This document shows positions 4,507-56,500 of a DNA stretch of 64,000 nucleotides, in pieces. Below the pieces are notes generated by a model that saw only the letters and a program-made list of their open reading frames with translations, was not told the origin of the DNA and did no database searches. The first letter of the stretch is position 1. Each line of letters starts with the position of its first letter. The position numbers were made by a program, and so were the translations under genes. Where the stretch lies: the NCBI GenBank assembly GCA_947306425.1, contig CAMZGO010000008.1, positions 105 to 64,104 of the forward strand, given 5' to 3'. The stretch comes from an uncultured Elusimicrobia bacterium. GTDB lineage: Bacteria; Elusimicrobiota; Elusimicrobia; Elusimicrobiales; Elusimicrobiaceae.

Positions 4507-4588
4507 TGGACGGAGAGGGACTTGAACCCTCACGGATTGCTCCATACGCTCCTAAGGCGTACGCGTCTGCCGATTCCGCCACCCGTCC
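4507..4588 (-). tRNA. tRNA-Leu (anticodon UAG), class II with long variable arm, no encoded CCA
   Basis: Manual fold of the minus strand. Acceptor GGACGGG/TCCGTCC, anticodon stem TACGC/GCGTA with loop CT-TAG-GA, variable arm GGA-GCAA-TCC, T arm GAGGG-TTCAAGT-CCCTC. Confidence 0.85.
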
Positions 4589-4614: not shown

Positions 4615-4687
4615 TGGGCCATGAGAGACTCGAACTCTCGACCTTACGCTTAAGAGGCGTCTGCTCTACCAACTGAGCTAATGGCCC
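4615..4687 (-). tRNA. tRNA-Lys (anticodon CUU), no encoded CCA
   Basis: Manual fold of the minus strand. GGGCCAT acceptor, D arm GCTC-AGTTGGTA-GAGC, anticodon loop CT-CTT-AA, T arm GAGAG-TTCGAGT-CTCTC. Confidence 0.9.
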
Positions 4688-30317: not shown

Positions 30318-30325
30318 AAAATCTC

Positions 30326-31051
30326 CTAAATAACCTCAATATTCTTTTTAGGCACCCAATTAAAAGCACCTTCGCTGCCTACTGATACTTCATACCAATC
30401 CCCTTTTTTGTCGTGCACTTCCAAAAGTTGTGCTCTGGGAACATTTAAAGCAACCGGGAAATTTTCCGAAGGTCCGCTTCTTAACTCAGCCCTTGGTGCA
30501 GTTACTACAGCCAAATTCTGCACATCTTTTTTTACTCTTAAAAGGTAAAAGCAAGTAAAAAACAAGGTTGAACATAAACTAACAACTGCTATCTTAACCA
30601 GAAAGGGCCTATACTTAAAAGATAGCATAAAAGTAGATACAATAGCAAATAACCACAAACTAATGAAGGCAAGTCCCTTTAATTCTTGTAAGGAAAAGTA
30701 ATGATAAATTAAAAATATACTTCTTGGCATATTTTCCGGTATCAAATTTTGGCCGGTTTTTTGCAAGGTAAAAGATAAGTTGTTTATTATATCTTTATCT
30801 CTTGGATTTAGCCGAAAAGCACGATAATAGTTCACAAGAGCTTTATCTAAATCCCCCGCTTTAAAGTAACTGTTTGCGAGGTTATAATAGGCATAACTAT
30901 CTTTTGGAAATGCTGTAATCTGCTTTTGATACTCAACAGCAGCAGCAAGGTAATTGCCTTCGTTAAATAAGTCTTGAGCAGTTTTTGTTTGCCCTTGTGC
31001 AAAACAAAAAAGTGATAAAAAAAGTGATATGAACGTCAAAAAGTATTTCAT
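30326..31051 (-). CDS. batE: BatE-like TPR + SH3b protein
   Basis: Signal peptide, TPR units, a TM segment and a C-terminal SH3b-like GDWYEVSV. It is the last gene of the Bat cluster. Confidence 0.65.
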   Translation of the reverse strand: MKYFLTFISLFLSLFCFAQGQTKTAQDLFNEGNYLAAAVEYQKQITAFPKDSYAYYNLANSYFKAGDLDKALVNYYRAFRLNPRDKDIINNLSFTLQKTGQNLIPENMPRSIFLIYHYFSLQELKGLAFISLWLFAIVSTFMLSFKYRPFLVKIAVVSLCSTLFFTCFYLLRVKKDVQNLAVVTAPRAELRSGPSENFPVALNVPRAQLLEVHDKKGDWYEVSVGSEGAFNWVPKKNIEVI

Positions 31052-32886
31052 TTAATCTCCTTTTCCAAAGCAGAAAGTAAGGACAAAAGTTTTTGCTTTT
31101 CTTCTTTTATGCTTTTACCGGAACCTACAATGGTAACCGGCGCATATTTTAACATGGCAAGATGTTTCCAACAAGACGTTAATTTACTTGTTAAAGAAGC
31201 ACTTAAATTTAATTTTTTACATACTTCTTCTATACTCATCAAACCGATTTGGGAACCCATTTTAGCTTCCAGATAATCTTGTAAAATTTCGGGTAACCGG
31301 TCAGTTTTATCAGCGATTTTTATACTTTTTTTAGCCTTTAAATAATATTTTAGGCCGCCGGTTAAAGAAATTTCGCCTTTCCTAATCAAAGCAATTAAAA
31401 ATGCAATCAAAACTAAAACAAAAGCATAATAATTATTATTACCGAAATCTGCAACATACAAAACGAATTTATTAAAGGAGCTTTGCGGCAAATGTTTCAA
31501 ATAACTTATATCAGTAGTTAAATGCTGTATTTGATTGGTTGTATCCCCACCATTATTAGAAGAAAAAGATAAGGTTTTAGAATTTTCTACCGCGGGCGGT
31601 AAAACTTTTATTGGCAAAGGCTCCGTATGTATAGTTTTATAAGTTTTTGAATCAATATCAAAATAAGAAAAATTAATTTTCGGTATAGTGTAAGAACCGG
31701 AAGCGCGCGGAACAATAACCGTTTTATAAATCTTCAAACCGTTTATTCTACCTGAAGCAATTGTATTTTTTAAGTCAGAAGATGTTTCATAAATTCTAAA
31801 ACTAGGCCCTAAATCAGGTAAAGCAATATCTTTTACTGCAGCCAAATTACCTGTACCCATCACAACAATATTCAAAGTGATAGGTTCGCCTGCGGCTACT
31901 TTGTAAGTATCTAAAGAAGATGTTATTTTAAAATTTGTCCCCACCGCGCCATAAAAACTTGCCGGTTTATTTTTAGAGGGTAAAGGCAAAATATCAACAA
32001 ATAAAATATCACTTTCAACTTTATGGGACTGCCCGCCGTTTGCGCCCCTAAAAAAGACATCAAAAGCATCAAAAAACCCCTCGGAAGATGTGTAAGTTAC
32101 GGATGCTGAGCCAATTTCAGCTACACCGCTGACTAAACCAAAAAGCGCACTTTCTATTTCTGTATAATAATAGGTTTTATTGCCAAAATGCTCTTGCCCT
32201 TGTCTTGTTGCAAGGTCCTCTGAAAACATACCTTTTAATTGCGGTTTATCGTACATCGGCTGGCCCAAAGTATTTTGCGACTGATAAAACCTTATTTTTA
32301 AAGTAACTTGTTCATTTATATAAGCCTTCTTGGTATTTGTTTCAGCGGTCATAAAAAAATTCGGCAGTTTGGCATTAGGATTATATCCGTTATCTTCAAG
32401 TTTGGATTTTTTTTGATTGGTTCGTTCCTGTTCTTGCTGTTGGGTTTGGGCTTGGGTGCGGGGTGCAGACGGGGTTTGCCTGGAAATTTCAACCTCTATC
32501 GGTTCTGTGGAATAATTTTTACCCGCTACCTGAACCGTAAAAGCCCCAATAGTTGTTTTACCGGCAAAACGGGGTGTCAAGATATAATTGAATTGCATCA
32601 AAGCGGATACTTTCCCGTTTATCATATTAACTTGGCGGCTTTGACCTGCGGAGTAAATATTAAAATTTGGCAAAGACGGCATCTGAGGATTTTCAATATT
32701 AGTAGAAGGAGCACTTACATAAACCGTAAGATTAATTTCTTCTTCTAAAGTTAAAGTTGTTGTGTTTACCTCAGCCCTAACTTCCACTTGGGCCTTCAAA
32801 TTAGAAACACAAATCACAAAAAGAACACTGCTTATTAAAAGTGTTTTAAAAATACTCCGAAGTGAAATATTACCAATCCTTTTCAA
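31048..32886 (-). CDS. batD: BatD-like oxygen-tolerance protein
   Basis: The listed ORF runs to 33135, but that extension is a K/N-rich out-of-frame read through batC. An in-frame TTG at 32886 lies 8 nt after an AAAGGAG RBS and gives a normal signal peptide (LKRIGNISLRSIFKTLLISSVLFVIC). Confidence 0.72.
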   Translation of the reverse strand: MKRIGNISLRSIFKTLLISSVLFVICVSNLKAQVEVRAEVNTTTLTLEEEINLTVYVSAPSTNIENPQMPSLPNFNIYSAGQSRQVNMINGKVSALMQFNYILTPRFAGKTTIGAFTVQVAGKNYSTEPIEVEISRQTPSAPRTQAQTQQQEQERTNQKKSKLEDNGYNPNAKLPNFFMTAETNTKKAYINEQVTLKIRFYQSQNTLGQPMYDKPQLKGMFSEDLATRQGQEHFGNKTYYYTEIESALFGLVSGVAEIGSASVTYTSSEGFFDAFDVFFRGANGGQSHKVESDILFVDILPLPSKNKPASFYGAVGTNFKITSSLDTYKVAAGEPITLNIVVMGTGNLAAVKDIALPDLGPSFRIYETSSDLKNTIASGRINGLKIYKTVIVPRASGSYTIPKINFSYFDIDSKTYKTIHTEPLPIKVLPPAVENSKTLSFSSNNGGDTTNQIQHLTTDISYLKHLPQSSFNKFVLYVADFGNNNYYAFVLVLIAFLIALIRKGEISLTGGLKYYLKAKKSIKIADKTDRLPEILQDYLEAKMGSQIGLMSIEEVCKKLNLSASLTSKLTSCWKHLAMLKYAPVTIVGSGKSIKEEKQKLLSLLSALEKEIK

Positions 32887-33553
32887 TTTGATTACTCCTT
32901 TGCTCTTGTTTAGGTAAATCCTGTTTATGTTCCTGTGCCATTTGCAAAACACTTGCGGCTTCTTCTTTGGCAGAAGTTTCTTTTTCCTTTTGCTCTTGTT
33001 TTTCTTGTTCTTGTTGTTTTTGGTCTTGTTTTTGTTTATTTTGATTTTGCTTATCTTGGTTTTGTTGTTTATCTTGTTTATTATCTTGATCTTTTTGAGG
33101 ATTTTGTTTCTGCTGCTGGCTTTGCTTTTGTGCATTTTCCTCTTTTAACATAAATTGTAAATTCTGTTTCGCATCTTTATCCTTCAAATTCAATAATATG
33201 GCTGCCCGCATAGCCTGTTTAGCACCCTCTTTATCACCTGCCTTATATGCGGAATTACCCAAATTATACAAAGCATTTTGATTTAAAGAAGCTTCCTGCT
33301 TATTTTTAGGGGCCGGCACTAAAGCATTTTCAAAGGCAGAAGATGCAGCCCCATAATCTTGAAGCCTATACAAAGCCGTACCACTATTGTAAGATGCTTC
33401 CGAAGGGGCTTTTTCCGATGCTTTTTCATAAAGTTCAAAAGCCTTGCCGAATTTACCTTCATCATATGCTTTATTGCCTTGCCTTAAAGTTGAATTTTGG
33501 GCAAATAAAGGTAAACTTAAAAATATAAAGATGAAAGTTAAAAATGTTCTCAT
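32870..33553 (-). CDS. batC: BatC-like TPR protein with Q/K/E-rich low-complexity tail
   Basis: Signal peptide and TPR units. Its position lies between batB and batD. Confidence 0.68.
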   Translation of the reverse strand: MRTFLTFIFIFLSLPLFAQNSTLRQGNKAYDEGKFGKAFELYEKASEKAPSEASYNSGTALYRLQDYGAASSAFENALVPAPKNKQEASLNQNALYNLGNSAYKAGDKEGAKQAMRAAILLNLKDKDAKQNLQFMLKEENAQKQSQQQKQNPQKDQDNKQDKQQNQDKQNQNKQKQDQKQQEQEKQEQKEKETSAKEEAASVLQMAQEHKQDLPKQEQRSNQIEKDW

Positions 33554-33555
33554 AA

Positions 33556-34560
33556 CTATATTTTACCTTTTCTTACAGGCAGGCACAAAGCCCCCATAAT
33601 TAAAATTATAGCAAGTGCAAGCGGTATTTGATAGCGGGTTTTATAAACAACGGTATCGGTCGTTTTAGTAAGGCTCTTATCTAAAGAACGAAGTTGTACT
33701 GCAATACTGTCTGCTACTTGCTGCGCGCTAGTATACTTTATATAGGCCCCGCCTGTCTTAGAGGCAAGGTCTATTAATGTCTTTTCATCTAATTTAGTTA
33801 AAACCGTTTTGCCTGTTTTATCTTTTTTATATTCTGTTCCGGAAGATGTCTTAATCGGTATAAGTTCCCCCTCTTCCGTACCTATACCTACAGATATTAT
33901 TTTTATTCCGGCTTCCCTTGCGGTTTTAAGGGCATCTTCTATATCTTGCGGGTTATGGTCTTCTCCGTCGGTAACAAGTACAAGCGCCTTTACGCCGCTG
34001 TAAGGGCCGAGCATACGCGCGGCAAGGTTTATAGTCGGCGATAACGCAGTACCTGTTATGGGAAGCATATTTATTTTTAATTGCTCGCTTAAATTTTTAA
34101 GTGCATTTAAATCGGTCGTAATAGGGCAAAGCATATATGCCTGAGAAGTAAAAGCAATCAAACCAAGACGTTCTTGTGTAATTTCCTCAAAAAGCATTTT
34201 CAGCATAGTTTTTGCATTTGCAAGACGGTTCGGTTTAAAATCCTGTGCCTGCATTGACAGGGAAACATCCAAAGCAATTACTGCTTGAGAGTATACTGCA
34301 ACATTTTCACGCCTTTCTTTTCCCCATTGGAGCCCGGCTAAAGCAATAAATAAACAGAAAACACCGCTTAAAAATAAGATATCTTTTAAACGCCTTCTGA
34401 ATTTAAATTCCGGCGGTGTTAAAAGGGAAAAATTTGTTTTAGAAAAGAGCGTTGACAACACTGATTTCCGACGCAAAAAACCAAGCCGCCAAAAAAATGC
34501 TATCAAAATTGCGGTTAAGATTAAATAAAAAAATATTTTTATATTTGCAAACAGTTCCAT
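33556..34560 (-). CDS. batB: BatB-like von Willebrand factor A domain membrane protein
   Basis: N-terminal TMs and a VWA MIDAS motif (LDVSLSM). Confidence 0.83.
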   Translation of the reverse strand: MELFANIKIFFYLILTAILIAFFWRLGFLRRKSVLSTLFSKTNFSLLTPPEFKFRRRLKDILFLSGVFCLFIALAGLQWGKERRENVAVYSQAVIALDVSLSMQAQDFKPNRLANAKTMLKMLFEEITQERLGLIAFTSQAYMLCPITTDLNALKNLSEQLKINMLPITGTALSPTINLAARMLGPYSGVKALVLVTDGEDHNPQDIEDALKTAREAGIKIISVGIGTEEGELIPIKTSSGTEYKKDKTGKTVLTKLDEKTLIDLASKTGGAYIKYTSAQQVADSIAVQLRSLDKSLTKTTDTVVYKTRYQIPLALAIILIMGALCLPVRKGKI

Positions 34561-34566
34561 AAGCGC

Positions 34567-35694
34567 TTAAGGTATTTTAATAAAAATAAACTTCCCCCCC
34601 AAAAAAGCAAGCAAGGCAAAAAGTAAAGAAAGCCAAAGTAAATTTTGATAAGCATCCTCATAATTTAACTTTTTATCTTCGCGGTAAATTGTTTTTTCAA
34701 GTGCATTGATTTGGGTATAAATATCGTTCAGTTCGGCGGTATTTAAGGCCGTATAGGCCCGTGCACCTGTTATGTCGGCAATTTCCTGTAAAGTATTTTT
34801 TGCTTTAAGCATGTTTTCCCTGTTTGCTTTATAACTAGCTATAAGTTGATCCCGATAAGGAATATTCATTGGTAAACCGGAAATATCCCCAGCCATTAAA
34901 ATAGTGTATACTTTTATACCGTATGCAGCGGTAGCTTTAGCAGCGGCAATAGGGTCCACCGTACCGCTGTTATTTTCCCCATCCGTAACCAAAATGATAA
35001 TTTTGCTTTTTGCAATTCCGTCTTTTAAATGCTGAGTACTTACGGCTATAGCATCACCTATAGCAGTACCGCTGACGCCGCTTAACATATCCACATAAAC
35101 ATAACCCAAATATTCTTTTAGTGCAGAGTAATCCAAAGTCAAGGGGCATTGCAGCATCGCAGCACCTGAAAATACAACTATGCCAATTCTATCGCTGCTG
35201 CGGGCAGAGATAAAATCATCAACAGTCTCTTTTGCTGCAGCCATACGGTTATACAAATCCTCCGCCTTTTGGGCTTTAGTAGCCTCAAAATCAGGGGTAT
35301 TCATACTGCCGGAGACATCCAAAGTAAGCATAATATCTATTCCTTGTGTCGGCGGCGGAAGTGTTTTGCCTTCTTTTTGCGGGCGTGCAAGCGCTAAAAT
35401 AGCAAAGAATAGACATAATAATACACAAGTTAAACTAAAATATTGTGCAAGCAGGGTAGCAAAATCTTGCTGTATTTTTTGACCTGCTATAAGAGGATAT
35501 TTTACCCTCGCCCCGCCTTTAGTTTTAAGCATAAAACCCCAAAATGCCGCAAATAACCAAAGTATCAGCAAATATAAAACATTCGGGTTTGCCAATTTTT
35601 TACCATGCAAAGTAAAAAATACGCAAAGATTTAAAGCCGCAAAACACAACAAAATCAATAAAACAGGGCGCAAGTATTTAGTTATGCTTTTCAT
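34567..35694 (-). CDS. batA: BatA-like von Willebrand factor A domain membrane protein
   Basis: N-terminal TMs, a VWA MIDAS motif (LDVSGSM) and a C-terminal TM. Confidence 0.83.
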   Translation of the reverse strand: MKSITKYLRPVLLILLCFAALNLCVFFTLHGKKLANPNVLYLLILWLFAAFWGFMLKTKGGARVKYPLIAGQKIQQDFATLLAQYFSLTCVLLCLFFAILALARPQKEGKTLPPPTQGIDIMLTLDVSGSMNTPDFEATKAQKAEDLYNRMAAAKETVDDFISARSSDRIGIVVFSGAAMLQCPLTLDYSALKEYLGYVYVDMLSGVSGTAIGDAIAVSTQHLKDGIAKSKIIILVTDGENNSGTVDPIAAAKATAAYGIKVYTILMAGDISGLPMNIPYRDQLIASYKANRENMLKAKNTLQEIADITGARAYTALNTAELNDIYTQINALEKTIYREDKKLNYEDAYQNLLWLSLLFALLAFLGGKFIFIKIP

Positions 35695-36637
35695 TTCCCC
35701 CTCCTTTTAAATTATCTTTGGCTTGGTAACGGCTTAAATCTGTTTCCTTATTTTCCAAAATAATTGCTTTGGCTGTAAGCAGTGTTTTATCTCTTTCTTC
35801 CACACTTGGCACAACACGGGCGAATTTAACAAGGCCCAATTCCTGCTGAAATTTATGAAATACATTGAAATCAAATTTAAAGTCTTTTACTGTTTTTAAT
35901 TTCTTAAATAATTCGCGTGCCGTCATTTTTTGTGCTTCAAAATTAAAACGCGCAGATAGGAATTGGCGCAATATATCGGAAATTTCGGAATAATAAAGTT
36001 TATACTGATTTTTCTCCCACAAGTCACTTTGTGTTAAAATATCAAGTTGGGAGAGGGCAATCTCATGCATAGGACGTTCTTGTTTCTGATAAGGACTTAG
36101 GTTTAACGGCTGTGGTTTACTTTTTCGCTTTTTAAAATAAATAAAAGCATAAATTAAAAGCCCTATAAATAAAACAATAAATATGAACGGCCATATATTG
36201 AAAGGCCTGTATGGACCGCGGATATCAATAAGACTTGTAATTTTTGAAGATATTTCTTCAATGTCAATTTCAAGATTTTCCGTTTTTAACTTTTCACCAC
36301 CTGGGGTAATAAAACCCAAAGCAGTCAAAGTTGAGATTTGCAAATTAAGCGGTAAGACCGTTGCTTCAATTAAAAACGGGTTTTGTTTATTTGGGACTAT
36401 GGAAAGAATTTCAAAATCCTTTTGGCTGGTATTTTCCCCGTCAAAAGCAGCCGTATCTGGTAAAGTGAATGTCAATTTCAACGGCGTACCGAAAGTTGCT
36501 TTTTGTGGCTTATTATTATATTCCAAGACCTTTATATTTTCTTCCTGTTGTACAGAATCATCGGCATCTATATTTTGAGGCTGAGAAAACGCAAACAAAG
36601 GAAAAAATAAAAATACTAAAATAAAATATTTTCTCAT
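35678..36637 (-). CDS. hypothetical membrane protein, positional equivalent of the DUF4381-type gene of MoxR/Bat operons
   Basis: Signal peptide plus a central TM followed by KKRKSK. It lies between the DUF58 gene and batA. Confidence 0.55.
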   Translation of the reverse strand: MRKYFILVFLFFPLFAFSQPQNIDADDSVQQEENIKVLEYNNKPQKATFGTPLKLTFTLPDTAAFDGENTSQKDFEILSIVPNKQNPFLIEATVLPLNLQISTLTALGFITPGGEKLKTENLEIDIEEISSKITSLIDIRGPYRPFNIWPFIFIVLFIGLLIYAFIYFKKRKSKPQPLNLSPYQKQERPMHEIALSQLDILTQSDLWEKNQYKLYYSEISDILRQFLSARFNFEAQKMTARELFKKLKTVKDFKFDFNVFHKFQQELGLVKFARVVPSVEERDKTLLTAKAIILENKETDLSRYQAKDNLKGGGNEKHN

Positions 36638-37524
36638 CTTTTTAACTTCCTTGAACGGCGTTTAAAAAAACTTACCAAAGTATCAGAAACTTTATCGCCA
36701 TCTTGTATAACAATATATTCAAGCCCGCTTTTTGTAAATAACAATTTTGCTTGGTCAAGTTCTTTGACTTGTTTTCGGGTTACTTCTTCAGCACTTTTTG
36801 AGGCCAAATTAAGTAAGGTTTGTGTACCGTCCTCAAGCCCTTCAAGAGAAATGAAAACCCTCGCTTTGGGCAAAACTCTTTCAAGTTTATCTTCAACTAT
36901 TACAGGCACTAAATCAAATTTACGTGCTGTTAACTTGAAAGGTTTTGAGTAATCAAGTTCCGTCTTAAAATCTGAAATTAGAATTAAAATACCGTTGCGC
37001 CTTATCAAATGATTTATACTATCCAAAGCAAGCATAATATTTGTCCCCTTACTTGCCGGAGTAAAAGCCAAAAGTTCACGAATAATCCTAAGCACATGAC
37101 GCCGCCCCTTTTTTGGAGGTATATAAAGTTCAATTTTATCGCTGAACAGAAGCAGGCCAACCTTATCGTTATTGTGTGTGGCAGAAAAAGCAAAAACGGC
37201 TGCAAGTTCAGCTGCAATTTCGCTTTTAAGCCGTCCTAGTGAACCAAACATCAAAGAAGCAGAGACATCACAAGCAATGAGAAGGGTTAGTTCGCGTTCC
37301 TCATTAAACTTCTTGACGAAAGTAGTGCCTGTCTTCGCCGATACATTCCAATCAATACTTCTGATATCGTCACCCGGAATATATTGGCGAACTTCGGCAA
37401 ACTCTATACCTTGGCCTTTAAATATACTTAAATATTCACCGGCAAAGGTTTCCTTGACAAGTTTGCCCGTCTCAATTTCTATGCGACGAACGCGTTTTAA
37501 AATTTCTGCCGTATCCATAGGCAC
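36634..37524 (-). CDS. DUF58 domain protein
   Basis: GDDIRSIDWNVSAKTG motif. It follows moxR, as is typical. Confidence 0.85.
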   Translation of the reverse strand: MPMDTAEILKRVRRIEIETGKLVKETFAGEYLSIFKGQGIEFAEVRQYIPGDDIRSIDWNVSAKTGTTFVKKFNEERELTLLIACDVSASLMFGSLGRLKSEIAAELAAVFAFSATHNNDKVGLLLFSDKIELYIPPKKGRRHVLRIIRELLAFTPASKGTNIMLALDSINHLIRRNGILILISDFKTELDYSKPFKLTARKFDLVPVIVEDKLERVLPKARVFISLEGLEDGTQTLLNLASKSAEEVTRKQVKELDQAKLLFTKSGLEYIVIQDGDKVSDTLVSFFKRRSRKLKR

Positions 37525-37532
37525 CCGCTCAG

Positions 37533-38516
37533 TTATGGTACTTCTATTGTAGCAAAGAGTTTTTCAATTATCTCTTCTGTAGTAACATTTTCCGCTTCAG
37601 CTTCGTAGGTAAGTAAAATTCTATGCCTTAATACATCGGGGCCTATTTCTTTTATATCTTCCGGCGTAACATAACCGCGCCCCTCCAAAAAGGCATAGGC
37701 CTTTGCGGCTTTTGTTAAGAAAATTGATGCACGCGGGCTTGCACCGTATAGAATATACGGGGCCAAACCTTCAAGTTTATAATCTTTCGGATAACGTGTT
37801 GCAAAAACCAAATTTAAGATATAATCTTTAACTTTCTCATCCACATAAATATTATCCGCGACTTGACGTGCCTTTAAGATTTGTTCAAGCATAATTCTTC
37901 CGGATACTTTTGGTGTATTAGCAGTTGACATCCTTTCCAAAATCTGCCTTTCTTCTAGTTTTGAAGGATAAGCAATATTTATTTTAAGCATAAACCTATC
38001 CACTTGTGCTTCAGGTAAAGGATAAGTTCCCTCTTGTTCAACGGGGTTTTCGGTAGCAAGAACCATAAACGGTTCTGGAAGTTTATACGTTTCTTCCCCG
38101 ATAGTAACTTGGCGTTCTTGCATGGCCTCTAGCAATGCACTTTGAACTTTCGCCGGAGAACGATTAATTTCATCTGCCAAAACCAAGTTCGCAAATACCG
38201 GGCCTTTTCTAACCGAAAAAGTGCCTTCTTTAGGGTTAAAAATCAAAGTACCTGTTACATCGGCAGGTAACAAATCCGGCGTAAATTGTATACGCTGGAA
38301 AGAACAACTTATAATTTCCGCTAATGTTTTGACTGTTAATGTTTTCGCAAGGCCGGGCACACCCTCAATTAAAATATGCCCATCAGCAATAAGGGCAACA
38401 AGCATTTTGTTTACTAAATCCTCTTGCCCGACAATTACTTTTGCAATTTCCTGTTTTAAATCCTGCAAAAATAAACTTTCTTTTTGAACTTCCTGATTTA
38501 TTTCCGTTATATTCAT
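37533..38516 (-). CDS. moxR: MoxR-family AAA+ ATPase
   Basis: GVPGLAKT Walker A, LADEINR Walker B, AAA_3 pattern. Confidence 0.93.
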   Translation of the reverse strand: MNITEINQEVQKESLFLQDLKQEIAKVIVGQEDLVNKMLVALIADGHILIEGVPGLAKTLTVKTLAEIISCSFQRIQFTPDLLPADVTGTLIFNPKEGTFSVRKGPVFANLVLADEINRSPAKVQSALLEAMQERQVTIGEETYKLPEPFMVLATENPVEQEGTYPLPEAQVDRFMLKINIAYPSKLEERQILERMSTANTPKVSGRIMLEQILKARQVADNIYVDEKVKDYILNLVFATRYPKDYKLEGLAPYILYGASPRASIFLTKAAKAYAFLEGRGYVTPEDIKEIGPDVLRHRILLTYEAEAENVTTEEIIEKLFATIEVP

Positions 38517-38533
38517 CTTACCCCCCTATAATC

Positions 38534-39190
38534 TTAAATATACTGACCGATCTCTCCTTGATCTTTTTTATCAACTTTATTTTCTTCACTGATTTTGACG
38601 TTAAGACCGTCTTTATACCACTTTTGTTCTGCTAAACTATCTGCTAATTGTTTAGCTGTTTGCGCTAAAATCAAATTATCACTTGAAACAGCATTATTTA
38701 TGGTTTGTGCTACCTCTGGCGTACGATATGTCGACAAAACATTTAGCAAATTAGCCCTTTCAAGAAGTTCATCTTGATAAAAGGATAACAACATCTTTAA
38801 AGTTTGTTTATCTTTATATAAGGTAAGCAACTTGAATATTTTAGCACGATCCTCCGGCAAAGTGAACATCTTCAAATATTCCCTTATCAATGTTTCTGCT
38901 TCCCCGGCACCGCTTGAATACGCAATATCTATGAAAGCAAAGCAAATTTCAGGGTCATAAGTCATAAAAACATTTTCCTTTACTTTACCGAAAGAATTTA
39001 AGTTGTTATATTTAAATCCTCTCCGATTAGCAGCGATATCAGGTATAAAATTTTGGTCTACGCCGGCAGCAACATTGGAAATTAAATCCTTAGGTGTAAT
39101 ATCTGCTTTAGATAATGCGGTAGTTGTTCCCCCCCAAAATACAAAATAACCAGCAACGACCACTACAAATAAAAATAGAATTTGTTTCAT
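38534..39190 (-). CDS. hypothetical membrane-anchored protein
   Basis: N-terminal TM. In operon 17 nt upstream of moxR. Confidence 0.55.
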   Translation of the reverse strand: MKQILFLFVVVVAGYFVFWGGTTTALSKADITPKDLISNVAAGVDQNFIPDIAANRRGFKYNNLNSFGKVKENVFMTYDPEICFAFIDIAYSSGAGEAETLIREYLKMFTLPEDRAKIFKLLTLYKDKQTLKMLLSFYQDELLERANLLNVLSTYRTPEVAQTINNAVSSDNLILAQTAKQLADSLAEQKWYKDGLNVKISEENKVDKKDQGEIGQYI

Positions 39191-39254
39191 AATTCAATAT
39201 CACCTTCCTTTAAAAAGCAATTTGCCCTACACCTATATATTAGCAAATTTTTTG

Positions 39255-39989
39255 CTATTTAATCTGAATAAATTTTATAGGCAAATTTTTATTTTCAATT
39301 ACTGCATAATTTTTGGGGTTTTTAACTTCATCAGCGGAAATTAAATTTATCCTGTAAAATATATTTATTTCTTTAGCTGTATTTTCGGTCTTAATAATTT
39401 CAAAGAAACTGTCTGAAAGTTTACTTGCTGATAAAACAAATACAATCTGTTCCTTGTTAAAATTTACTTTTGGATATGAACCCTTATGTTCTTTTAAGAA
39501 TTTGTTATAGGCAGGGGCATCTTTAATAATCAGAAATTCTTCCGGCAATTTAAGCATAGTTATACGCGCTGTTTCACTTAACGGAGATTCTTCACCACTA
39601 TAAAAATTCTCCATAGCGGAAGGATGAACTACAAAATCCTCTTTTTCTAAAATAATAGTTTTACGCTTTTTCATGTCGTTTCGTGAAATAAGGTCAAAAA
39701 CATCTTTTGGTTTATTTGCCTGACTATAAAAAACTAAATCCTCTTCCTTTTGAGGGGTAGCAGAAAGTTCTTGTCCGGTTTTAGAGGATTCTTCACCTAC
39801 AAACAAAATTTCACCGGCCTCATTTGAATCTATGGAATTTTCAAGTTCCCTTTGTGCCGTCTCTTCAAGCATAGCCATAACTTCCGGGCTTTCTTTGTTG
39901 ATTTGATATTTAGGCCACAAATAATATTGCCAAAGCAATGCTGCCGCAAAAATACCAAGACAAAGGGCTATTATATTTCGGTGTTTCAT
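39255..39989 (-). CDS. hypothetical membrane-anchored protein
   Basis: N-terminal TM. 4-nt overlap with queF. Confidence 0.55.
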   Translation of the reverse strand: MKHRNIIALCLGIFAAALLWQYYLWPKYQINKESPEVMAMLEETAQRELENSIDSNEAGEILFVGEESSKTGQELSATPQKEEDLVFYSQANKPKDVFDLISRNDMKKRKTIILEKEDFVVHPSAMENFYSGEESPLSETARITMLKLPEEFLIIKDAPAYNKFLKEHKGSYPKVNFNKEQIVFVLSASKLSDSFFEIIKTENTAKEINIFYRINLISADEVKNPKNYAVIENKNLPIKFIQIK

Positions 39990-49144: not shown

Positions 49145-50425
49145 ATGAAAAAGTCTTTAACTATTGTTTTGTCCTTACTTTTATCTGCTGCTTTATCGGC
49201 ACAAAATATAGATGGTACAAATTTACAAGAACAGAAATTAACTTTAGAGGATTGCATAAATTTAACACTGCAAAATAACCCGGAAATTGCTGCTTCTTAT
49301 TCCACACAGGAAGCGCAAAAGAGCCAATTAAAACAAAGTAAATCAAATTATTTTCCTCAAATAAACGGCAGCGCCGGTTATAACCGCTCAAACAGTAACT
49401 CCGCCCAAGGTAACAGCGGAACAAATAACAATTATTCCGCTTCAGTTAATGCTACACAACTTATTTATGATTTCGGGCAGACGAGTTCAACCGTAGGTAT
49501 ACAAGAAAAGTCTTATCAAAGTGCAGTGCAAAATACAACCGCTTTAATTAATGACAAAATTTATGCTTTAAAGGTCGCTTATTATGCGGTATTATCTGCG
49601 GAAGAATCAGAAAATGTTTACAAACAGTCCGTAGAACAATATACAGAACAATTAAAACGCGCAAAGGCATTTTATGAAGTGGGAACATATCCTAAAATTG
49701 ATGTAACTTCAGCGCAAGTAAATTTAAATGATTCAAAATTGAATTTATTAACCGCCCAAAATTTAGTAAAAACAAGACGGCAAGAACTTTTAAATGTGAT
49801 GGGTATATCAGACCCAAACCCCACTTTTAGTTTGGAAATGACAGATGTTTTACCCCCCTTTGAACTTACCTTAGAAGAGGCCTTAAAAGAAGCCAATAAA
49901 AACAGGCCCGATTTGCTTTCAAAACAACTGCAAGTTGAAAGTGCAAGACAAAATGTAACACTGGCTAAAACCGGCTTTGCACCAACCCTTACCGCAAACG
50001 GAACTTATGTTTGGAGCGGGGCAGAATTTCCCCTCTATGACCGTTGGTCAGCAGGTGCGAATTTAAATGTCCCTATTTTTAGCGGTCTTAGCACCTATAA
50101 TAAAGTTGAACAGGCAAAACAAAATCTTCAAACATCCTACAGCAATTTAACTGCTTTAGAGCAAAAAATTTTGCTTGAAGTTAAAACCGCTTATCTTGCT
50201 TTAAATAATGCAAAGGAACGTATACCCGTTGCCGAACTTACAAAAGAGCAGGCAAAAGAAAGTTATGATTTGGCCGTCGGCAGATATAAGGTCGGTGTAG
50301 GAAATTATATTGAAGTAAAAGATGCGGAAACCTCTTACAGTAAGGCAAAACTTTCCTATATTGAAGCGGTTTTTGATTACAATTTGGCAGTTGCAAAATT
50401 AAAAAATTCAATAGGAACAAGATAA
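49145..50425 (+). CDS. tolC: TolC-family outer membrane efflux protein
   Basis: Signal peptide and two OEP repeats. Confidence 0.87.
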   Translation: MKKSLTIVLSLLLSAALSAQNIDGTNLQEQKLTLEDCINLTLQNNPEIAASYSTQEAQKSQLKQSKSNYFPQINGSAGYNRSNSNSAQGNSGTNNNYSASVNATQLIYDFGQTSSTVGIQEKSYQSAVQNTTALINDKIYALKVAYYAVLSAEESENVYKQSVEQYTEQLKRAKAFYEVGTYPKIDVTSAQVNLNDSKLNLLTAQNLVKTRRQELLNVMGISDPNPTFSLEMTDVLPPFELTLEEALKEANKNRPDLLSKQLQVESARQNVTLAKTGFAPTLTANGTYVWSGAEFPLYDRWSAGANLNVPIFSGLSTYNKVEQAKQNLQTSYSNLTALEQKILLEVKTAYLALNNAKERIPVAELTKEQAKESYDLAVGRYKVGVGNYIEVKDAETSYSKAKLSYIEAVFDYNLAVAKLKNSIGTR

Positions 50426-50433
50426 GGAGAATT

Positions 50434-51588
50434 ATGAAATTAATTAAGAAAAAATATGCAATAATCGCAATCATTGTAACAGTATGTGCGGCTATATTTT
50501 TGCTAAAGGGATGCAAAAACGGCAAGGCCGCAAATTACCGTATTGAAAATCCGCGCCGGGCAAAAATAGTACAAACGGTTGAAGCGTCAGGTACCATTAA
50601 CCCCGTTACACAAACAAGTGTAGGAACACAAATTTCCGGCAGGGTAGAACAAATTTTCGTTGATTATAATTCTATTATCAAGAAAGGACAATTACTTGCA
50701 GTTATTGACCCTTCTACTTATCAATCAAATGTAATTCAGCAAGAAGCGAATTTACAAAAACTTGAAAGTATTTTCAAAAATGCCAAACGTAATTATGAAA
50801 GATACAAAAAATTATATTCCCAAGAACTTGTCGCAAAAAGCGAACTTGATAATGCGGAGATGGATTACCTTTCCGCCAATGCCCAAATGGTGCAAGGGCG
50901 CGCAAGTTTGGATAAAGCAAAAATTGATTTGAGTTATACAAATGTCGTTTCCCCGGTAGACGGAATAGTAATTTCAAAGGAAGTGGAATTGGGGCAAACT
51001 GTCGCAGCAAGTTACCAAACGCCTACTTTATTTTTAGTAGCCGAAGATTTAACAAAAATGCAGATTGAAGTTAATATTTCAGAGGCTGATATAAGCAAAA
51101 TTAAAGAGGGTCAAAAAGTTAATTTTAATATTGATGCGTACCCGACAACTACCTTTGAAGGCCAGGTAAGCCAAGTGAGAAATGCCGCCACCACTATTTC
51201 AAATGTTGTTACTTATACTGTTGTTGTTTCCGTTGATAATAGTGAATTACTGCTTAAACCCGGTATGACGGCAAATGTGGCAATAATTACCGCCGAAGTA
51301 AATGATGCCTTAAGTGTTCCGAATCAAGCCTTACGTTTTGTACCACCTGATAATGCAAAAATATCCGGCGATAAAGCAGGGCAGCGCAAGAACTTTAAAG
51401 GGCAGGGTTTATGGCGGCAACATAGGGACGGCTCTATTTATATAACAGAAGTAAAAACAGGAATAACAGACGGTAATAAAACTGAAATTATTTCCCAAGA
51501 AATAACTGAAAATACACCCATAATAGTTGCTAGCGAAAATACAAAAAGTAAAAACGGCAACCGCCGTATGGGGCCACCGGGATTTTAA
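50434..51588 (+). CDS. MacA/HlyD-type periplasmic adaptor
   Basis: N-terminal TM, biotinyl-lipoyl-like and coiled-coil hairpin pattern (VGTQISGRVEQIFVD...LLAVIDPS). Confidence 0.87.
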   Translation: MKLIKKKYAIIAIIVTVCAAIFLLKGCKNGKAANYRIENPRRAKIVQTVEASGTINPVTQTSVGTQISGRVEQIFVDYNSIIKKGQLLAVIDPSTYQSNVIQQEANLQKLESIFKNAKRNYERYKKLYSQELVAKSELDNAEMDYLSANAQMVQGRASLDKAKIDLSYTNVVSPVDGIVISKEVELGQTVAASYQTPTLFLVAEDLTKMQIEVNISEADISKIKEGQKVNFNIDAYPTTTFEGQVSQVRNAATTISNVVTYTVVVSVDNSELLLKPGMTANVAIITAEVNDALSVPNQALRFVPPDNAKISGDKAGQRKNFKGQGLWRQHRDGSIYITEVKTGITDGNKTEIISQEITENTPIIVASENTKSKNGNRRMGPPGF

Positions 51589-51602
51589 AAGCAGAGGGCA
51601 AA

Positions 51603-52307
51603 ATGTCTTTAATAAAAGTTGAACATATTTGGAAAATTTATAATCTTGGCGATATTCCGCTTGAAGTGCTTAAAGATGTAAGTTTAACTATTGATGCCGG
51701 TGAATTTGTGGCAATTATGGGGCCGTCAGGTTCAGGTAAAAGTACTTTTATGAATATGCTTGGCTGCCTTGATAAACCCACAAAAGGTACTTATATTTTA
51801 GACGGCATAAACATAACAAATTCTACTTTAAGCGAACTTGCAGATATTAGGTGCCGCAAAATCGGTTTCGTGTTTCAGGGGTTTAATTTAATTGCAAGAA
51901 CAAGCGCCATAGAAAATGTTGAACTGCCGATGATTTATGCGCATATTCCTTCTGAAGAACGCGTGCAAAAAGCAAAAAAAGCATTAAAAGAAGTGGGGCT
52001 TGAAAACCGCTTGGACCATACACCAAACCAACTTTCCGGCGGTCAACAGCAAAGAGTTGCAATCGCGCGCGCTATCGTAAATGATGCACCGATAATTTTT
52101 GCCGACGAGCCAACCGGCAACCTTGACACAAAAACCAGCATTGAAGTTATGGAAAGTTTTTATAAGTTAAATGAAGAAAAAAATAAAACAATTATTCTTG
52201 TTACTCATGAACCGGACATCGCCGCATACGCAAAAAGAATTGTACGTTTTAAAGACGGTGTTATCGTAAGTGATGAGCAAAATAAAAATAGGACAAAACC
52301 ACAATGA
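51603..52307 (+). CDS. MacB/LolD-type ABC transporter ATP-binding protein
   Basis: GPSGSGKST Walker A, LSGGQQQRVAIARA signature, IIFADEPTGNLD Walker B. Confidence 0.93.
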   Translation: MSLIKVEHIWKIYNLGDIPLEVLKDVSLTIDAGEFVAIMGPSGSGKSTFMNMLGCLDKPTKGTYILDGINITNSTLSELADIRCRKIGFVFQGFNLIARTSAIENVELPMIYAHIPSEERVQKAKKALKEVGLENRLDHTPNQLSGGQQQRVAIARAIVNDAPIIFADEPTGNLDTKTSIEVMESFYKLNEEKNKTIILVTHEPDIAAYAKRIVRFKDGVIVSDEQNKNRTKPQ

Positions 52308-53539
52308 TTGATTTTTTAACTATCTTAAAAATTGCCTTAAAGGCGCTTTGGGTAAACAAAATGCGTTCGGTTTTAACTAGTTTGGGCATAATTATCGGTG
52401 TAGCGGCGGTTATTGTTATGCTTGCAGTCGGCGAGGGAAGTAAAAAGCGTATTTCTGACCAAATGTCCAGCATGGGCAGTAACTTGCTTATGATACGTTC
52501 CGGTTCTGTTACTTCAAGCGGTGCACGGGCAGGGCAAGGCGCACAGCCGACGCTTACTTTAAAAGATTCTGAGGCTATTGCAAAAAATGCCCAACATATT
52601 GCACAAGTTGCGCCAAGTGTTAGTTCAACGGCACAAATTGTTTACGGCAATCAAAATTGGTCTACAAGAATTACGGGGACTACCCCCTCCCTCTTTTACA
52701 TTCGTTCTTGGGAAGTTGATAACGGTGCGCTTTTTACTGATGATGAGGTCCGCCAAGGGGCAAGTGTCGCAATTTTGGGTGAAACTGTGGTGGAAAATTT
52801 GTTCGGTGTCCTTGACCCAATCGGAAAAACCGTCCGCATAAATAATGTACCTTTTAAAGTGGCGGGTGTTTTAAAATCACTTGGGCAAAATGCCATGGGT
52901 ACGGATCAAGATGATACCGTAATTGTGCCTATAACAACAGCAATGAAACGTTTATCAGGTTCACAATTTCAAGGAACGGTAAATAATATTATGGTGCAGG
53001 CACTTTCCACCGATGATTTAGCCGCTGCGGAAGAAGAAATTACACTTCTGCTCCGCCAACGCCATAATATTACCGGTAAAAAACAAGATGATTTTATCAT
53101 TCGCAATTTAACACAAATGATGGAAAGCGCCATGGAAGCAAATGAAACTTTTAGTTTACTGCTTGCCGCGATTGCATCAATTTCTTTGCTTGTCGGCGGC
53201 ATTGGTATTATGAATATTATGCTTGTATCTGTAACGGAAAGAACGCGCGAAATCGGCATCCGTATGGCTATTGGCGCAAAGATGTGGGATATACGCCTTC
53301 AGTTTTTAGTGGAAGCGCTTGTTCTATCTTTAACAGGCGGCTTGCTTGGGATAATTTTAGGGCTTTCCGTTGCTTTGTTTATTAAGAATTTTACACCGGA
53401 CTTTTTACCAATCAGCATAACTATTACCCCGATGGTAATTTCTTTTGCATTTTCCGGTTTAGTGGGAATTTTCTTTGGGTTTTATCCGGCGTACAAAGCG
53501 TCTATGCTCAACCCAATTGACGCCTTAAGGTTTGAGTAA
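52304..53539 (+). CDS. MacB-type ABC transporter permease (MacB_PCD + FtsX)
   Basis: N-terminal TM, periplasmic domain and a C-terminal FtsX-type 3-TM bundle. 4-nt overlap with the ATPase gene. Confidence 0.9.
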   Translation: MIDFLTILKIALKALWVNKMRSVLTSLGIIIGVAAVIVMLAVGEGSKKRISDQMSSMGSNLLMIRSGSVTSSGARAGQGAQPTLTLKDSEAIAKNAQHIAQVAPSVSSTAQIVYGNQNWSTRITGTTPSLFYIRSWEVDNGALFTDDEVRQGASVAILGETVVENLFGVLDPIGKTVRINNVPFKVAGVLKSLGQNAMGTDQDDTVIVPITTAMKRLSGSQFQGTVNNIMVQALSTDDLAAAEEEITLLLRQRHNITGKKQDDFIIRNLTQMMESAMEANETFSLLLAAIASISLLVGGIGIMNIMLVSVTERTREIGIRMAIGAKMWDIRLQFLVEALVLSLTGGLLGIILGLSVALFIKNFTPDFLPISITITPMVISFAFSGLVGIFFGFYPAYKASMLNPIDALRFE

Positions 53540-53540
53540 A

Positions 53541-56500
53541 CTAAAATTTTTCTGAAAATAAATCAAGCCAATTTGCTTTATAATCTTCCGGGGTTGTTGC
53601 AAAAGCTTCTAAATCTAATGCTTTACCGATTTTAACTTGCGGAGCATTAATACCTGCCATTTCATAAAGCGCGTAAACAATAGCCAAATTAGCAGAAGCA
53701 CTACCTCGATAAAACGGCTTTGCATTTGTAAAAATGTAACTGATTTCGGATATATTATTATGCAATATATCTAAATCATCTTCGGTCAACTTTCCCCCTT
53801 GTTGTACATGCTCAATAATAGGTTTAATAAGATTATAATCTTCTTGTATAACCTTAAATGCGGCATCAATATTATTATGATAGACATCGCCATAATTATC
53901 TCTCTTAACTCCCGCCGGATGAGACATCTGATTTACCATGGAACCTAATTCTTCTAAATCAATACGAGTCAAAATAACTCCTTTAAAAGCGTGGGGCCTT
54001 CTATTTTTTGCAGTCCTTAAAAAATCATCCTGATATTCTGCATATGCATTTTCATGAAAACGTGTGTAAAACTCAATTGGCGTATTAGCTAAAATACCAA
54101 AGACAATATCATCAGATAAAGGTCCAAATTCTGATCCCATAAAATCACTAGGAGCAGATTTTTCATTCAGTGAATTGGCCATACCGTACTGCATCGGCCT
54201 CTCAATATATTCCCACATAATTTCATTAGATTCATTGTGTTTTTCCAAAAATAACTTTATTTGATTTATTTTTTTATGATAAAGAAAGATCTTTTTTCCC
54301 ATGTTTTTTACCGCTTCTTCTATACTTTTGCCTAACATTAAGTCCTGTTCAAAATTTTCTGTTATATCTTTCATAGTATAAACATATAAAGGATTAGTAC
54401 CCGGAAATTTAGATTTTTCTTCGCTCGGCAAAGTGGTTTCGTAACGGTCAGAATATTTGATAAGTTCATCGAATTCTTGAGGACTATCAATAGCCATTTG
54501 CCTAAGATTTTTATTGTAATACTTTTGCCAATCTTTATAAAAATCTACCCCCACAATTTCTTGCATTTTTTGGCTTTCTTCTAAGTTTAAGGGTTTACCG
54601 CTGAAAATTCCCGGAACAAATTGTTTGCGTGAATTAATAAATTTTTCCACTTCGCTTTCAAATTTCGGTACCGGCATTTTGATACTTCCCACAAGCGGTA
54701 CGGTTGCTAAAGCAAACGGCAAAGTTACAGGGTTTAACAAACTAAAAGCAAACAAACCGACACCGACGGCAGGCAAAACCCAACCCGGTAATTTAGATAA
54801 AAGTGAATTATTTTCTGCATCAGAATTGGTTTGATTTTTTACCGGTGTTTCAACAGTTATCATATTGTCAGTCGGTTGCAAAATAACTTCGCCGTTATTA
54901 TCCAAACTCGCGCGCCACCAACCGATTTTGCCGTCTAACTGCGCCCATACTAAAACATCCAAAATACTTTCTGCACCTATATTGCCTGTTATTACTTCTT
55001 GAGTATCTTGAAACCTACCGTCAGATTTAACTTTAACCACAACAGGGGCTATTCCGCCGAGTTCAAAGCGTTTGGCAAAACTTACGGCAAAATCTGCGTT
55101 CGGCGTCAAGTAATTTATACCTTCTTGTGTTTTGCCTACAGATAAACCATATTTCAAAACATCTTGTAGTTCGCCGTAAGAATGTAATACTATACCTCTG
55201 TATAAAGATAATTTATCTCTAAAACCTTCAGGCAACAAGTCCCTCATTTTCCCTCTAGTGGCTTTTATATTTTTTACGATATTATCTTTGTAATCCCATG
55301 TAAAAATATTTTTAGCTGAAAAAGTTACTGTTTTTAGATTTAAAGGCTTTTCATCAGGGGTAGATTTTTCTTTTGCACCGATATCTTCCAGGCCTAAACG
55401 AATTCTGTTTAGTTCATAAATATCATTATGATTCAAATCAAAATACTCAAAATCTATTATAGTTACAATAAGTTTTCCATTTTCATCACGTCTAAAAAAT
55501 ATATTATTCCATAAATCAGTATGATAAAAACCTTCTGCATTTAAATCTTTAACAAAATTTACAATTTGTTCCCATTCTTCATTTGTTATCTTAACACCTC
55601 TTAACGCAGCCATTGCTTCTGCACCTACTTTGGATATATTACCACGAATTATAACTTCCCAATTATCAACAATATTAACATACAATTTGTCTTGTAACGT
55701 AAAACCGGAAGTATTTACCGGTGACATTATCATATAACGTCTAAGCCAACTACATCTCTTTTTGACTTCATTTGCTATTTCATCCGATAAATCAGATAAA
55801 TTTGTTGACAACACTGTCGGACTTTCAACACCTATCAAAGGATATCTAGATGCAAATTTTTCTTTAAGAGTACTAAAGAGTTTTGTCCTGCTTATTTCGT
55901 CCGTTCCTGTTTCTATTCCTTTATCAGATATTCCTGTATAGTAGGCCTTTACCTCGTTATCAGAACCTATTAATTTCCCAACTGGAAATCTAACTTCCAC
56001 CACTTTCTTAATATCCGTTTTAAGGTTTAAGGGGTTTTCAGAATTTATTTTTTGCGTTAAGCTAGGTCTGTTAAAACTTGCCAAAAACGGTAAAGCTGCT
56101 AAAGCCATAGCGGGTTCTACTGCACCGTTAATGAGCGCCGTTAAACCCAAACCGATACCCAAAGCCGGCATTATTAAAGATTTAAAAGAAAATTTATTTA
56201 AAACAACAATATTTTTTGATTTGTAAATTTCATTTTTAGGTAACAGTAATTCTTTTATTTCTGTTCTAGTCTTATTTGCGATAGGATTATGAGGATCAGA
56301 ATAATCAAGCATTATTTGATAATTAGTTGCCATATCCCCATCAATAACATAAAAATGGAAATGATATCTCGGTGCATCATTAGATAAAGAATATTCATGC
56401 CGCGCAATACGAACTATTTTATTACTATCATTACTGTATAAGCGAAGAACATTCCATCGGTCAATAAATAAGGCATAAGCAGGGTTTTGGGGTGTCGCAT

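Follow-up and report, generated by a model that had tools for sequence, protein, structure and literature searches.

AvrB-like Fido modules repeated within a giant modular protein of a gut Elusimicrobiota bacterium

The stretch of DNA analysed here (the window) comprises 64,000 nt from an uncultured Elusimicrobia bacterium (GCA_947306425.1, contig CAMZGO010000008.1, positions 105-64,104 of the forward strand). Its last part carries, on the minus strand, a giant open reading frame (ORF) that contains four modules related to AvrB, a classic effector in plant immunity for which the catalytic activity was not established until 2024. The stop codon of the ORF lies at 53541-53543 and the frame remains open up to base 63998; the C-terminal 3485 amino acids are visible and the N-terminus lies beyond the end of the window, so that the full protein is longer than 3485 residues. 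Comparison of 100-residue chunks of the giant protein with the whole protein resolved its architecture into A, B, K and X modules and hydrophobic hairpins (Table 1). The IleRS encoded in the window is 61-71% identical to proteins of named Elusimicrobiota, Elusimicrobiaceae and Candidatus Avelusimicrobium, and by this marker the source organism belongs to the Elusimicrobiota. Related Elusimicrobiaceae genomes carrying A modules originate from the rumen. The literature searched treats the AvrB family as type III effectors of plant pathogens; it contained no paper linking AvrB with Elusimicrobia or Melainabacteria, nor any on giant Elusimicrobia genes. The analysis reported here widens the range of this 'plant-pathogen' enzyme family to include gut bacteria as well as a new modular architecture in which, as judged from sequence, most of the key AvrB pocket residues appear to be kept.

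The original prediction described four paralogous modules of about 350 amino acids. All four lie in the one ORF on the minus strand, which the original prediction had left unnamed, and their predicted coordinates agree to within a few codons with the hidden Markov model (HMM) envelopes, which span 53544-54671 for A4, ~57876-58943 for A3, ~60507-61532 for A2 and 62988 to the window end for A1; the A1 match begins at position 36 of the 363-position A profile. The C-terminal motif ascribed to the modules is also present as described, save for L-H-D in A3 and for LDLSAF and TPASY in A1. Over about 350 residues the other copies are 46-55% identical to A4, with 98 invariant columns. Because their DNA is only 63-76% identical, the A modules are old paralogues, to judge by their sequences under selection. 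An assembly artefact or a recent duplication is ruled out by this DNA divergence together with the multi-copy homologous genes found in independent genome assemblies.

Table 1. Features of the giant ORF, residues of the A4 pocket and module order at the giant-gene end in related contigs. Positions are those of the window unless a contig is named. HP, hydrophobic hairpin; pLDDT, predicted local distance difference test. Counts out of 32 refer to distinct full-length A modules of related proteins.
Feature	Position	Strand	Remarks
Giant ORF	53541-64000	-	A1-B1-HP-B2-HP-A2-K1-B3-HP-A3-B4-HP-X-HP-K2-B5-HP-A4, N to C
A4, AvrB-like Fido module, C-terminal module of the giant protein	53544-54671	-	Pfam AvrB_AvrC 19.2 bits; best NCBIfam XopAH stretch; AlphaFold2 pLDDT 82
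A3, AvrB-like Fido module	57864-58931	-	Pfam AvrB_AvrC 23.6 bits (cut-off 23.2); 46% identity to A4
A2, AvrB-like Fido module	60495-61544	-	Pfam AvrB_AvrC 24.0 bits (cut-off 23.2); 46% identity to A4
A1, AvrB-like Fido module	62979-64000	-	N-terminal part cut by window end; Pfam AvrB_AvrC 15.9 bits; 55% identity to A4
A4 catalytic segment, P-F-Y-R-G-S to L-D-L-E-A-F	53601-53717	-	
Same segment, A3, A2, A1	57933-58049, 60564-60680, 63045-63161	-	A1 reads LDLSAF
A4 motif T-N-P-L-Y	54384-54398	-	contains N93 and Y96; hhalign mapping, invariant columns
Same motif, other copies	58656-58670, 61248-61262, 63819-63833	-	
A4 motif Y-x-E-Y	54033-54044	-	contains Y213
Same motif, other copies	58350-58361, 60969-60980, 63465-63476	-	
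A4 R322 = AvrB R266, beta-phosphate contact	53706-53708	-	R in 30/32
A4 G323 = AvrB G267, beta-phosphate contact			G in 32/32
A4 S324 = AvrB S268, Fido 'N' position			S or T in 32/32
A4 A325 = AvrB A269, rhamnose O2'' contact			A or S
A4 S326 = AvrB A270			S, A or T
A4 D353 = AvrB D297, rhamnose O3'' contact	53613-53615	-	D in 32/32
A4 N93 = AvrB N62, uracil contact			invariant in four copies
A4 Y96 = AvrB Y65, base stacking			F in A3
A4 Y213 = AvrB Y131, rhamnose contact			invariant
A4 T203 = AvrB T125, rhamnose O4'' contact, peptide-binding sheet			T in A1, A2, A4; G in A3
A4 H251 = AvrB H217, peptide-binding sheet			H in A1, A4; Y in A2, A3
A4 I128 = AvrB R99, alpha-phosphate contact			not conserved (I, M or Y in other copies)
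No aligned A4 equivalent = AvrB G46, ribose O2' contact			
B1, ADP-ribosyltransferase-fold module (predicted)	62439-62987	-	
B2, ADP-ribosyltransferase-fold module (predicted)	61671-62246	-	
B3, ADP-ribosyltransferase-fold module (predicted)	59103-59591	-	
B4, ADP-ribosyltransferase-fold module (predicted)	57333-57875	-	AlphaFold2 pLDDT 73
B5, ADP-ribosyltransferase-fold module (predicted)	54783-55346	-	
K1, Kdo/WaaP-type protein-kinase-like module	59574-60506	-	Pfam PF06293
K2, Kdo/WaaP-type protein-kinase-like module	55314-56066	-	Pfam PF06293
X, single-copy module, ~340 aa	56199-57215	-	hairpin-flanked
Six bipartite hydrophobic hairpins, ~40 aa	62289-62417, 61551-61664, 58941-59057, 57213-57326, 56073-56189, 54681-54794	-	
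Giant-gene end, window	53541-57000		K2 - B5 - hairpin - A4
Giant-gene end, contig L001	7183-9843		hairpin - A - B - hairpin - K
Giant-gene end, contig L002	2182-5394		K - B - hairpin - B - hairpin - B - K
Giant-gene end, contig L003	4483-5106		ends in K module

The likeness of the A modules to AvrB is borne out by curated profiles, a bridging protein family, the predicted fold and pairwise alignment, which all agree. Run against the whole giant protein, Pfam AvrB_AvrC (PF05394) scores 68.4 bits (expectation value, E, 8.1e-19; cut-off 23.2 bits) over four stretches, one for each A module; the Pfam comparison that had been proposed as a check on the prediction thus returned AvrB_AvrC, and it gave no match to Fic at E <=1, either in the giant protein or in A modules scanned singly. 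In the single scans the coverage is limited to the last 70-85 profile positions (~240-324 of 326), with A2 and A3 above the cut-off and A4 and the truncated A1 below it. The NCBIfam XopAH/AvrB model (NF041403) reaches 94.4 bits summed over the four copies, its best stretch pairing giant-protein residues 3316-3481 (A4) with model positions 119-287 of 288. With this sum lower than the subfamily cut-off of 220 bits, and with the modules internal to a protein of >3485 residues, they fall outside the XopAH/AvrB type III effector subfamily itself. An exhaustive HMMER search using a profile of the A modules and three close relatives retrieved 132 proteins (a word-indexed protein search had given four relatives), 51 of which, each 255-360 residues long, were aligned as a bridging AvrB-like family. 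All 51 members match Pfam AvrB_AvrC (best E 3.8e-22). A PDB search with their profile reaches the AvrB crystal-structure chains (E 5e-18; AvrB residues 61-316, chain positions 63-318), and hhalign joins the A profile to this family with a probability of 99.8% (E 9.6e-28, A4 residues 91-376), or of 99.9% when AvrB itself is included, so that the profile comparison with AvrB structures links the modules to AvrB through the 51 proteins.

Structure prediction and direct alignment lead to the same family. The AlphaFold2 model of A4 has a mean pLDDT of 82 and a predicted template-modelling score (pTM) of 0.85, and in a Foldseek search of the PDB its first six matches are all AvrB (8TWO, 8TWJ, 2NUD, 8TXF, 2NUN and 1NH1; probability 1.00, E 1.3e-3 to 8e-3), with template-modelling (TM) scores of 0.36-0.41 when normalised by the query and 0.44-0.51 when normalised by the target. 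This model matches the AvrB fold moderately, not tightly. Fic domains (FICD, Bep proteins and AnkX) account for many of the matches further down, none of them significant (E >0.1). A gapless BLASTP alignment pairs A4 residues 307-364 with AvrB residues 251-308 (28% identity over 58 residues, 24.6 bits, E 0.003 for this single comparison) and places A4 R322 on AvrB R266 and D353 on D297, exactly as had been proposed for the module Arg and Asp, which are near-invariant in 32 A modules. The AvrB sequence used is identical to residues 3-323 of PDB chain 2nud_A, and the AvrB C terminus quoted in the original prediction was therefore correct.

A chance similarity of short motifs might be suspected from the pairwise BLASTP score of only 24.6 bits and from the profile of the four A modules alone, which finds AvrB in the PDB at E 0.4; a single-sequence search of PDB sequences with A4 gave no relevant match. 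The profile and fold matches (Pfam, NCBIfam, bridging profile and Foldseek), however, are significant, mutually consistent and directed to AvrB and no other family. They refute a chance origin, to which we assign a negligible probability, and homology of the A modules to AvrB is as good as certain. The top PDB match of the four-module profile was AcrIIA15 (8JFO_B; E 0.0017, 21 bits), over A-profile positions 111-220 (in A4, ~54000-54340); this match is weak and probably compositional or spurious.

The residues of the nucleotide-sugar pocket were mapped through the hhalign alignment and their conservation was counted in the four copies and in 32 distinct full-length A modules of related proteins (Table 1). 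The roles of the AvrB residues in base, phosphate and sugar contacts are those of the 2024 structures, in which A269 and A270 also contact the alpha-phosphate in the R266A-UDP (uridine diphosphate) complex; the R266A substitution abolished the rhamnosylation of RIN4 by AvrB (PMC10866546). All four copies read P-F-[YL]-R-G-[ST], and in each of them the Asp stands at position +31 from the Arg, with no gap between. According to Kinch et al. 2009 (PMC2686095), AvrB has R266 at the Fido D/E position and S268 at the N position and lacks the catalytic His. The A modules likewise have Arg at the D/E position, and the earlier view of PF-x-R-G-S-A-S as a degenerate Fic loop agrees with that analysis. 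With K or V at the position of the catalytic His and R at that of D/E, the modules lie outside the Fic family proper (PF02661). An invariant Y-H-K-K at A-module residues 131-134 lies close in sequence to I128, the equivalent of AvrB R99. That the R-G-[ST] loop, D353, Y213 and N93 are near-invariant in modules that are otherwise ~40-55% identical suggests selection on the pocket.

AvrB is a protein O-rhamnosyltransferase that takes UDP- or dTDP-rhamnose (dTDP, deoxythymidine diphosphate) as the donor and Ser/Thr as the acceptor and uses no metal ion, its chemistry being rhamnosyl transfer, beyond mere nucleotide binding (PMC10866546). AvrC is likewise a protein rhamnosyltransferase acting on Ser/Thr of its targets. 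By analogy with AvrB, an A module would bind a nucleoside diphosphate (NDP)-linked donor, the likeliest being a sugar, for instance rhamnose, carried on UDP or dTDP. In the alignment-based scheme, N93 and Y96 of T-N-P-L-Y would contact the base region of the donor, while the beta-phosphate would be gripped by the P-F-Y-R-G-S loop through R322 and G323, together with a helix starting at S324; the transferred group would be contacted by T203, Y213, A325 and D353 and passed to a Ser/Thr hydroxyl of whichever protein the beta-sheet lobe binds. Since the phosphate-, base- and sugar-side residues are largely kept and near-invariant, an active NDP-sugar-dependent transferase is favoured. Such an AvrB-type transferase is, by analogy, the best-supported mechanistic reading of the A modules, and their sequences make it probable that they are active AvrB-type transferases. 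The loss of the R99 and G46 equivalents leaves room for a different nucleotide moiety, and NDP-rhamnose as the specific donor is a possibility that we hold with some doubt.

On balance, the explanation that accounts best for these sequences is that each A module is a divergent, probably active Fido domain of the AvrB/XopAH branch placed within a modular effector or toxin array, a reading that we consider somewhat probable. A number of observations weigh against it. Two of the four modules, A4 and A1, score under the Pfam AvrB_AvrC cut-off when scanned singly, and the Foldseek E for AvrB is only ~1e-3, with TM-scores of 0.4-0.5. Within the pocket, the R99 equivalent is I128, G46 has no aligned equivalent, the T125 position is G in A3 and the H217 position is Y in A2 and A3; moreover, the P-F-Y-R-G loop (residues 319-323) of the A4 model has pLDDT <50, which makes the pocket geometry of this model uncertain. 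The biochemistry of the AvrB family is known from plant-pathogen members only. Mammalian cells make no NDP-rhamnose (PMC10866546), so that a simple animal-host model needs either another donor or another target. Finally, the window shows neither a secretion system nor an immunity gene or target, the gene downstream being the convergent macB, and PADLOC, which bears on an anti-phage defence role, gave no match.

Some of these same observations feed two other accounts of the A modules. In one of them, the modules would be catalytically dead AvrB-like folds kept for binding or scaffolding, as could be read into the loss of R99 and G46, the variation at T125 and H217 and the low confidence with which the catalytic loop is modelled. 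The R-G-[ST] loop, D353, Y213 and N93 are nevertheless near-invariant across the 32 otherwise divergent modules, and we judge this account to be very unlikely. The other would have the A modules run a different Fido chemistry (AMPylation, phosphocholination or phosphorylation) in place of glycosyl transfer. Fic proteins such as FICD, Bep and AnkX are indeed the next structural neighbours after AvrB, the P-F-x-R-G-S loop is slightly nearer to the Fic HPFx[D/E]GN than is the P-D-Q-R-G-S of AvrB, and a pocket lacking R99 and G46 may take another donor. This is improbable, however, given that the catalytic Fic His is absent (K or V), that the Fido D/E position holds an Arg, just as it does in AvrB, that Pfam Fic has no match at E <=1 and that the AvrB rhamnose contacts Y131, D297, A269 and, for the most part, T125 are conserved. 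An active AvrB-type transferase remains the preferred assignment for the modules.

Compared with AvrB/AvrC of Pseudomonas syringae (PF05394; PDB 1NH1, 2NUD and 8TWS), the A modules share the fold, the P-x-x-R-G-S loop with the Asp 31 residues after the Arg, the equivalents of N62, Y65, Y131 and mostly T125, and the absence of the Fic catalytic His. They differ in having only ~11% identity over the structural alignment, an additional N-terminal helical extension of ~90 residues that is modelled with high confidence, an insertion of ~40 residues (145-186) with low pLDDT, and no counterparts of R99 and G46. AvrB is a free type III effector of ~320 residues with an N-terminal acylation site and comes, like AvrC, from a plant pathogen, whereas the A modules are internal repeats of a giant protein of a gut Elusimicrobiota bacterium. 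For XopAH (AvrXccC) of Xanthomonas, NF041403 is the sequence model that covers the modules best and the Xanthomonas genes share a DNA pattern with them (see below), but the modules score far under the subfamily cut-off, and architecture and organism differ. With Fic/Doc proteins of the Fido superfamily the A modules have the loop-helix core in common, but not the HPFx[D/E]GN[G/K]R motif. The nearest relatives outside the Elusimicrobiaceae are uncharacterised AvrB-like proteins of gut Melainabacteria (Gastranaerophilales), the C-terminal halves of which score 80-112 bits against the A profile. They share P-[YFW]-x-R-G-S and D-L-E-A-F with the A modules, and some of them end giant proteins with a RamC_N kinase-like domain; in contrast to the A modules, they are without the A-specific N-terminal half, and are mostly free proteins of 270-340 residues or single C-terminal domains as opposed to hairpin-separated tandem arrays. 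What is new is therefore an A variant with an N-terminal extension, its tandem array in a giant strain-variable protein and the animal-gut setting; the family itself is known.

The distribution of the catalytic segment was surveyed with a degenerate DNA pattern encoding P-x-x-R-G-[ST]-x24-G-x-x-x-D-L-E-A-F, which matches three of the four copies in the window and has no match in 100 shuffles of it. Among the GTDB species-representative genomes the pattern occurs at 71 loci (L005-L075), 70 of them confirmed as AvrB-like by HMM. The large majority belong to Candidatus Gastranaerophilales and other Melainabacteria of the gut, with genomes that come from human, mouse, chicken, rabbit and rumen material. 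The remainder comprise plant pathogens and their relatives (six Xanthomonas species, Paracidovorax oryzae and one Ralstonia strain), a few Myxococcales, Vulcanimicrobiota and Variovorax genomes, and two genomes of Elusimicrobiaceae, in which each 8 kb holds 3-5 full A modules. The Melainabacteria proteins are ~300 residues long and some are encoded as tandem pairs (L009, L030 and L052); other copies form the C-terminal domain of proteins of 1000-2900 residues with LysM and RamC_N kinase-like domains. A complete A module with its own N-terminal half was found only in Elusimicrobiaceae-type proteins. The original prediction held that AvrB-family domains outside phytopathogens would be unusual; this describes the literature correctly, but in the sequence databases such domains are common in gut Melainabacteria. 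The AvrB catalytic core thus also occurs in bacteria of animal guts, in two phyla that have been little studied, and in the window it takes the form of four tandem copies in a giant modular protein, and the A modules provide new proteins with which to probe the generality, donors and targets of AvrB-type glycosylation where UDP-rhamnose is absent.

The B and K modules of the giant protein are also enzyme-like. The five paralogous B modules (~180 residues, 36-50% identical to B4) have, according to the structural model, an ADP-ribosyltransferase fold: the top Foldseek matches of the B model are EcPltA, KptA/Tpt1, typhoid toxin PltA and pertussis toxin S1 (probability ~0.97-1.0, E ~2e-3), and the modules carry Y-R-G ... 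[YF]-[FL]-[ST] ... [ED]-[VI]-[LI]-V-W, which recalls the R-S-E motif of ADP-ribosyltransferase toxins. They have no significant Pfam match, and the B profile has no match among PDB sequences. The two K modules score 28.3 and 23.8 bits against Pfam PF06293 (cut-off 21.3) and by eye appear to retain the H-x-D-L-x-x-N and D-F-E catalytic motifs. Module X has neither a Pfam nor a PDB sequence match. The six hairpins have the consensus LLMPALGIGLGLTALINGAAEPALALxALPFFASF; the sixth (the one preceding A4) is more divergent, whereas the other five are closely similar (34-83% identity among copies) and often better conserved than the enzyme modules between them. These hydrophobic segments look like membrane hairpins, which suggests membrane anchoring, and they may also serve in translocation or processing.

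Related proteins and strains show how variable this arrangement is. One relative of 5620 residues (P0005) has six A copies; P0005 and P0006 begin with Sec-type signal peptides and, by eye, also contain receiver-like, trypsin-like and zeta-toxin-like P-loop segments. In P0003 a response-regulator receiver domain (Pfam PF00072) is followed by a hairpin and then an A module, and P0007, which bears the NCBI annotation 'zeta toxin family protein [Elusimicrobiaceae bacterium]', carries at its N terminus a long hydrophobic stretch with multiple spans, transporter-like by eye. On three metagenome contigs the genes flanking the giant gene are 93-99% identical to those of the window, yet the giant gene ends in a different module order (Table 1), its C-terminal module being K on all three as against A4 in the window; a variable C-terminal module of this kind is a feature of polymorphic toxins. 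Contigs tend to break inside the giant gene. This comparison of sequences indicates that modules are recombinationally shuffled between strains, and such strain-level reshuffling suggests ongoing diversification, a hallmark of proteins in inter-organism conflict.

MARTX and polymorphic toxins are very large proteins that carry several unrelated enzymatic effector or toxin modules. The giant protein resembles them in its size, in its several enzymatic modules and in a content that varies between close strains. It differs from them in that no MARTX repeats, cysteine protease domain, or RHS, LXG or haemagglutinin regions were detected in it (nor did the Pfam scan of the giant protein find a PAAR domain), in that no immunity gene is adjacent and in that its modules are separated by conserved hydrophobic hairpins.

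We picture the giant protein as a whole as a modular array in which the effector or toxin domains would use nucleotide cofactors. It would be exported, as the Sec-type signal peptides of its relatives suggest, and be anchored in a membrane by its hairpins; the place of action of its enzymes would be the cytosol of a different cell, bacterial or eukaryotic, since only a cytosol supplies NDP-sugars, NAD+ and ATP. The case for an exported effector or toxin array is evenly balanced. Its main rival is a protein that acts on its own cell, tethered to the inner membrane with the A, B and K modules facing the producer cytoplasm, where they would modify proteins or envelope precursors of that same cell. 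Of the six hairpins, five come immediately before a module dependent on a cytosolic cofactor (the sixth precedes X), a Lys/Arg-rich flank after two hairpins suggests the cytoplasmic side, receiver domains are fused in relatives such as P0003, the N-terminal region of P0007 looks like a transporter, and neither an immunity gene nor dedicated secretion genes adjoin the giant gene. On the other hand, the signal peptides of P0005 and P0006 are typical of Sec export, the zeta toxin annotation of a relative and the ADP-ribosyltransferase fold of the B modules are both typical of toxins, and strain-level module shuffling resembles that of variable offensive proteins; an own-cell role seems rather unlikely to us.

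If the giant protein is an exported array, a broader picture can be sketched, which we put forward only tentatively: a class of proteins not described before, the giant strain-variable, hairpin-divided multi-effector proteins of gut Elusimicrobia, with simpler counterparts in Melainabacteria, may deliver AvrB-type glycosyltransferases, ADP-ribosyltransferases and kinases into gut cells, the recipients being other gut cells such as bacteria, protists or host epithelium. Were this true, AvrB-type protein O-rhamnosylation or a related modification would be a widespread inter-organism weapon in animal guts, and AvrB and XopAH would be one offshoot of a much larger family. The locus also raises the question of how a bacterium without an evident type III secretion system would deploy AvrB-like domains; the window genes that were examined include none for type III secretion.

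The neighbours of the giant gene are ordinary chromosomal genes, including those for IleRS, PolA and Rho. The convergent macB, which is also found on metagenome-assembly contigs, ends at 53539, a single nucleotide before the stop codon of the giant gene, and this junction (53539-53543) leaves no room for separate terminators. macB is the last gene of a complete TolC/HlyD/ABC/MacB export operon (49145-53539) that faces the giant gene. Two further features of the window are unrelated to the A modules: a Bat-operon-like arrangement in a minus-strand cluster at 29305-39989, with a BatD-domain gene (31048-33135) and two VWA-domain genes (33556-35694), and two tRNA genes at 4507-4588 and 4615-4687.

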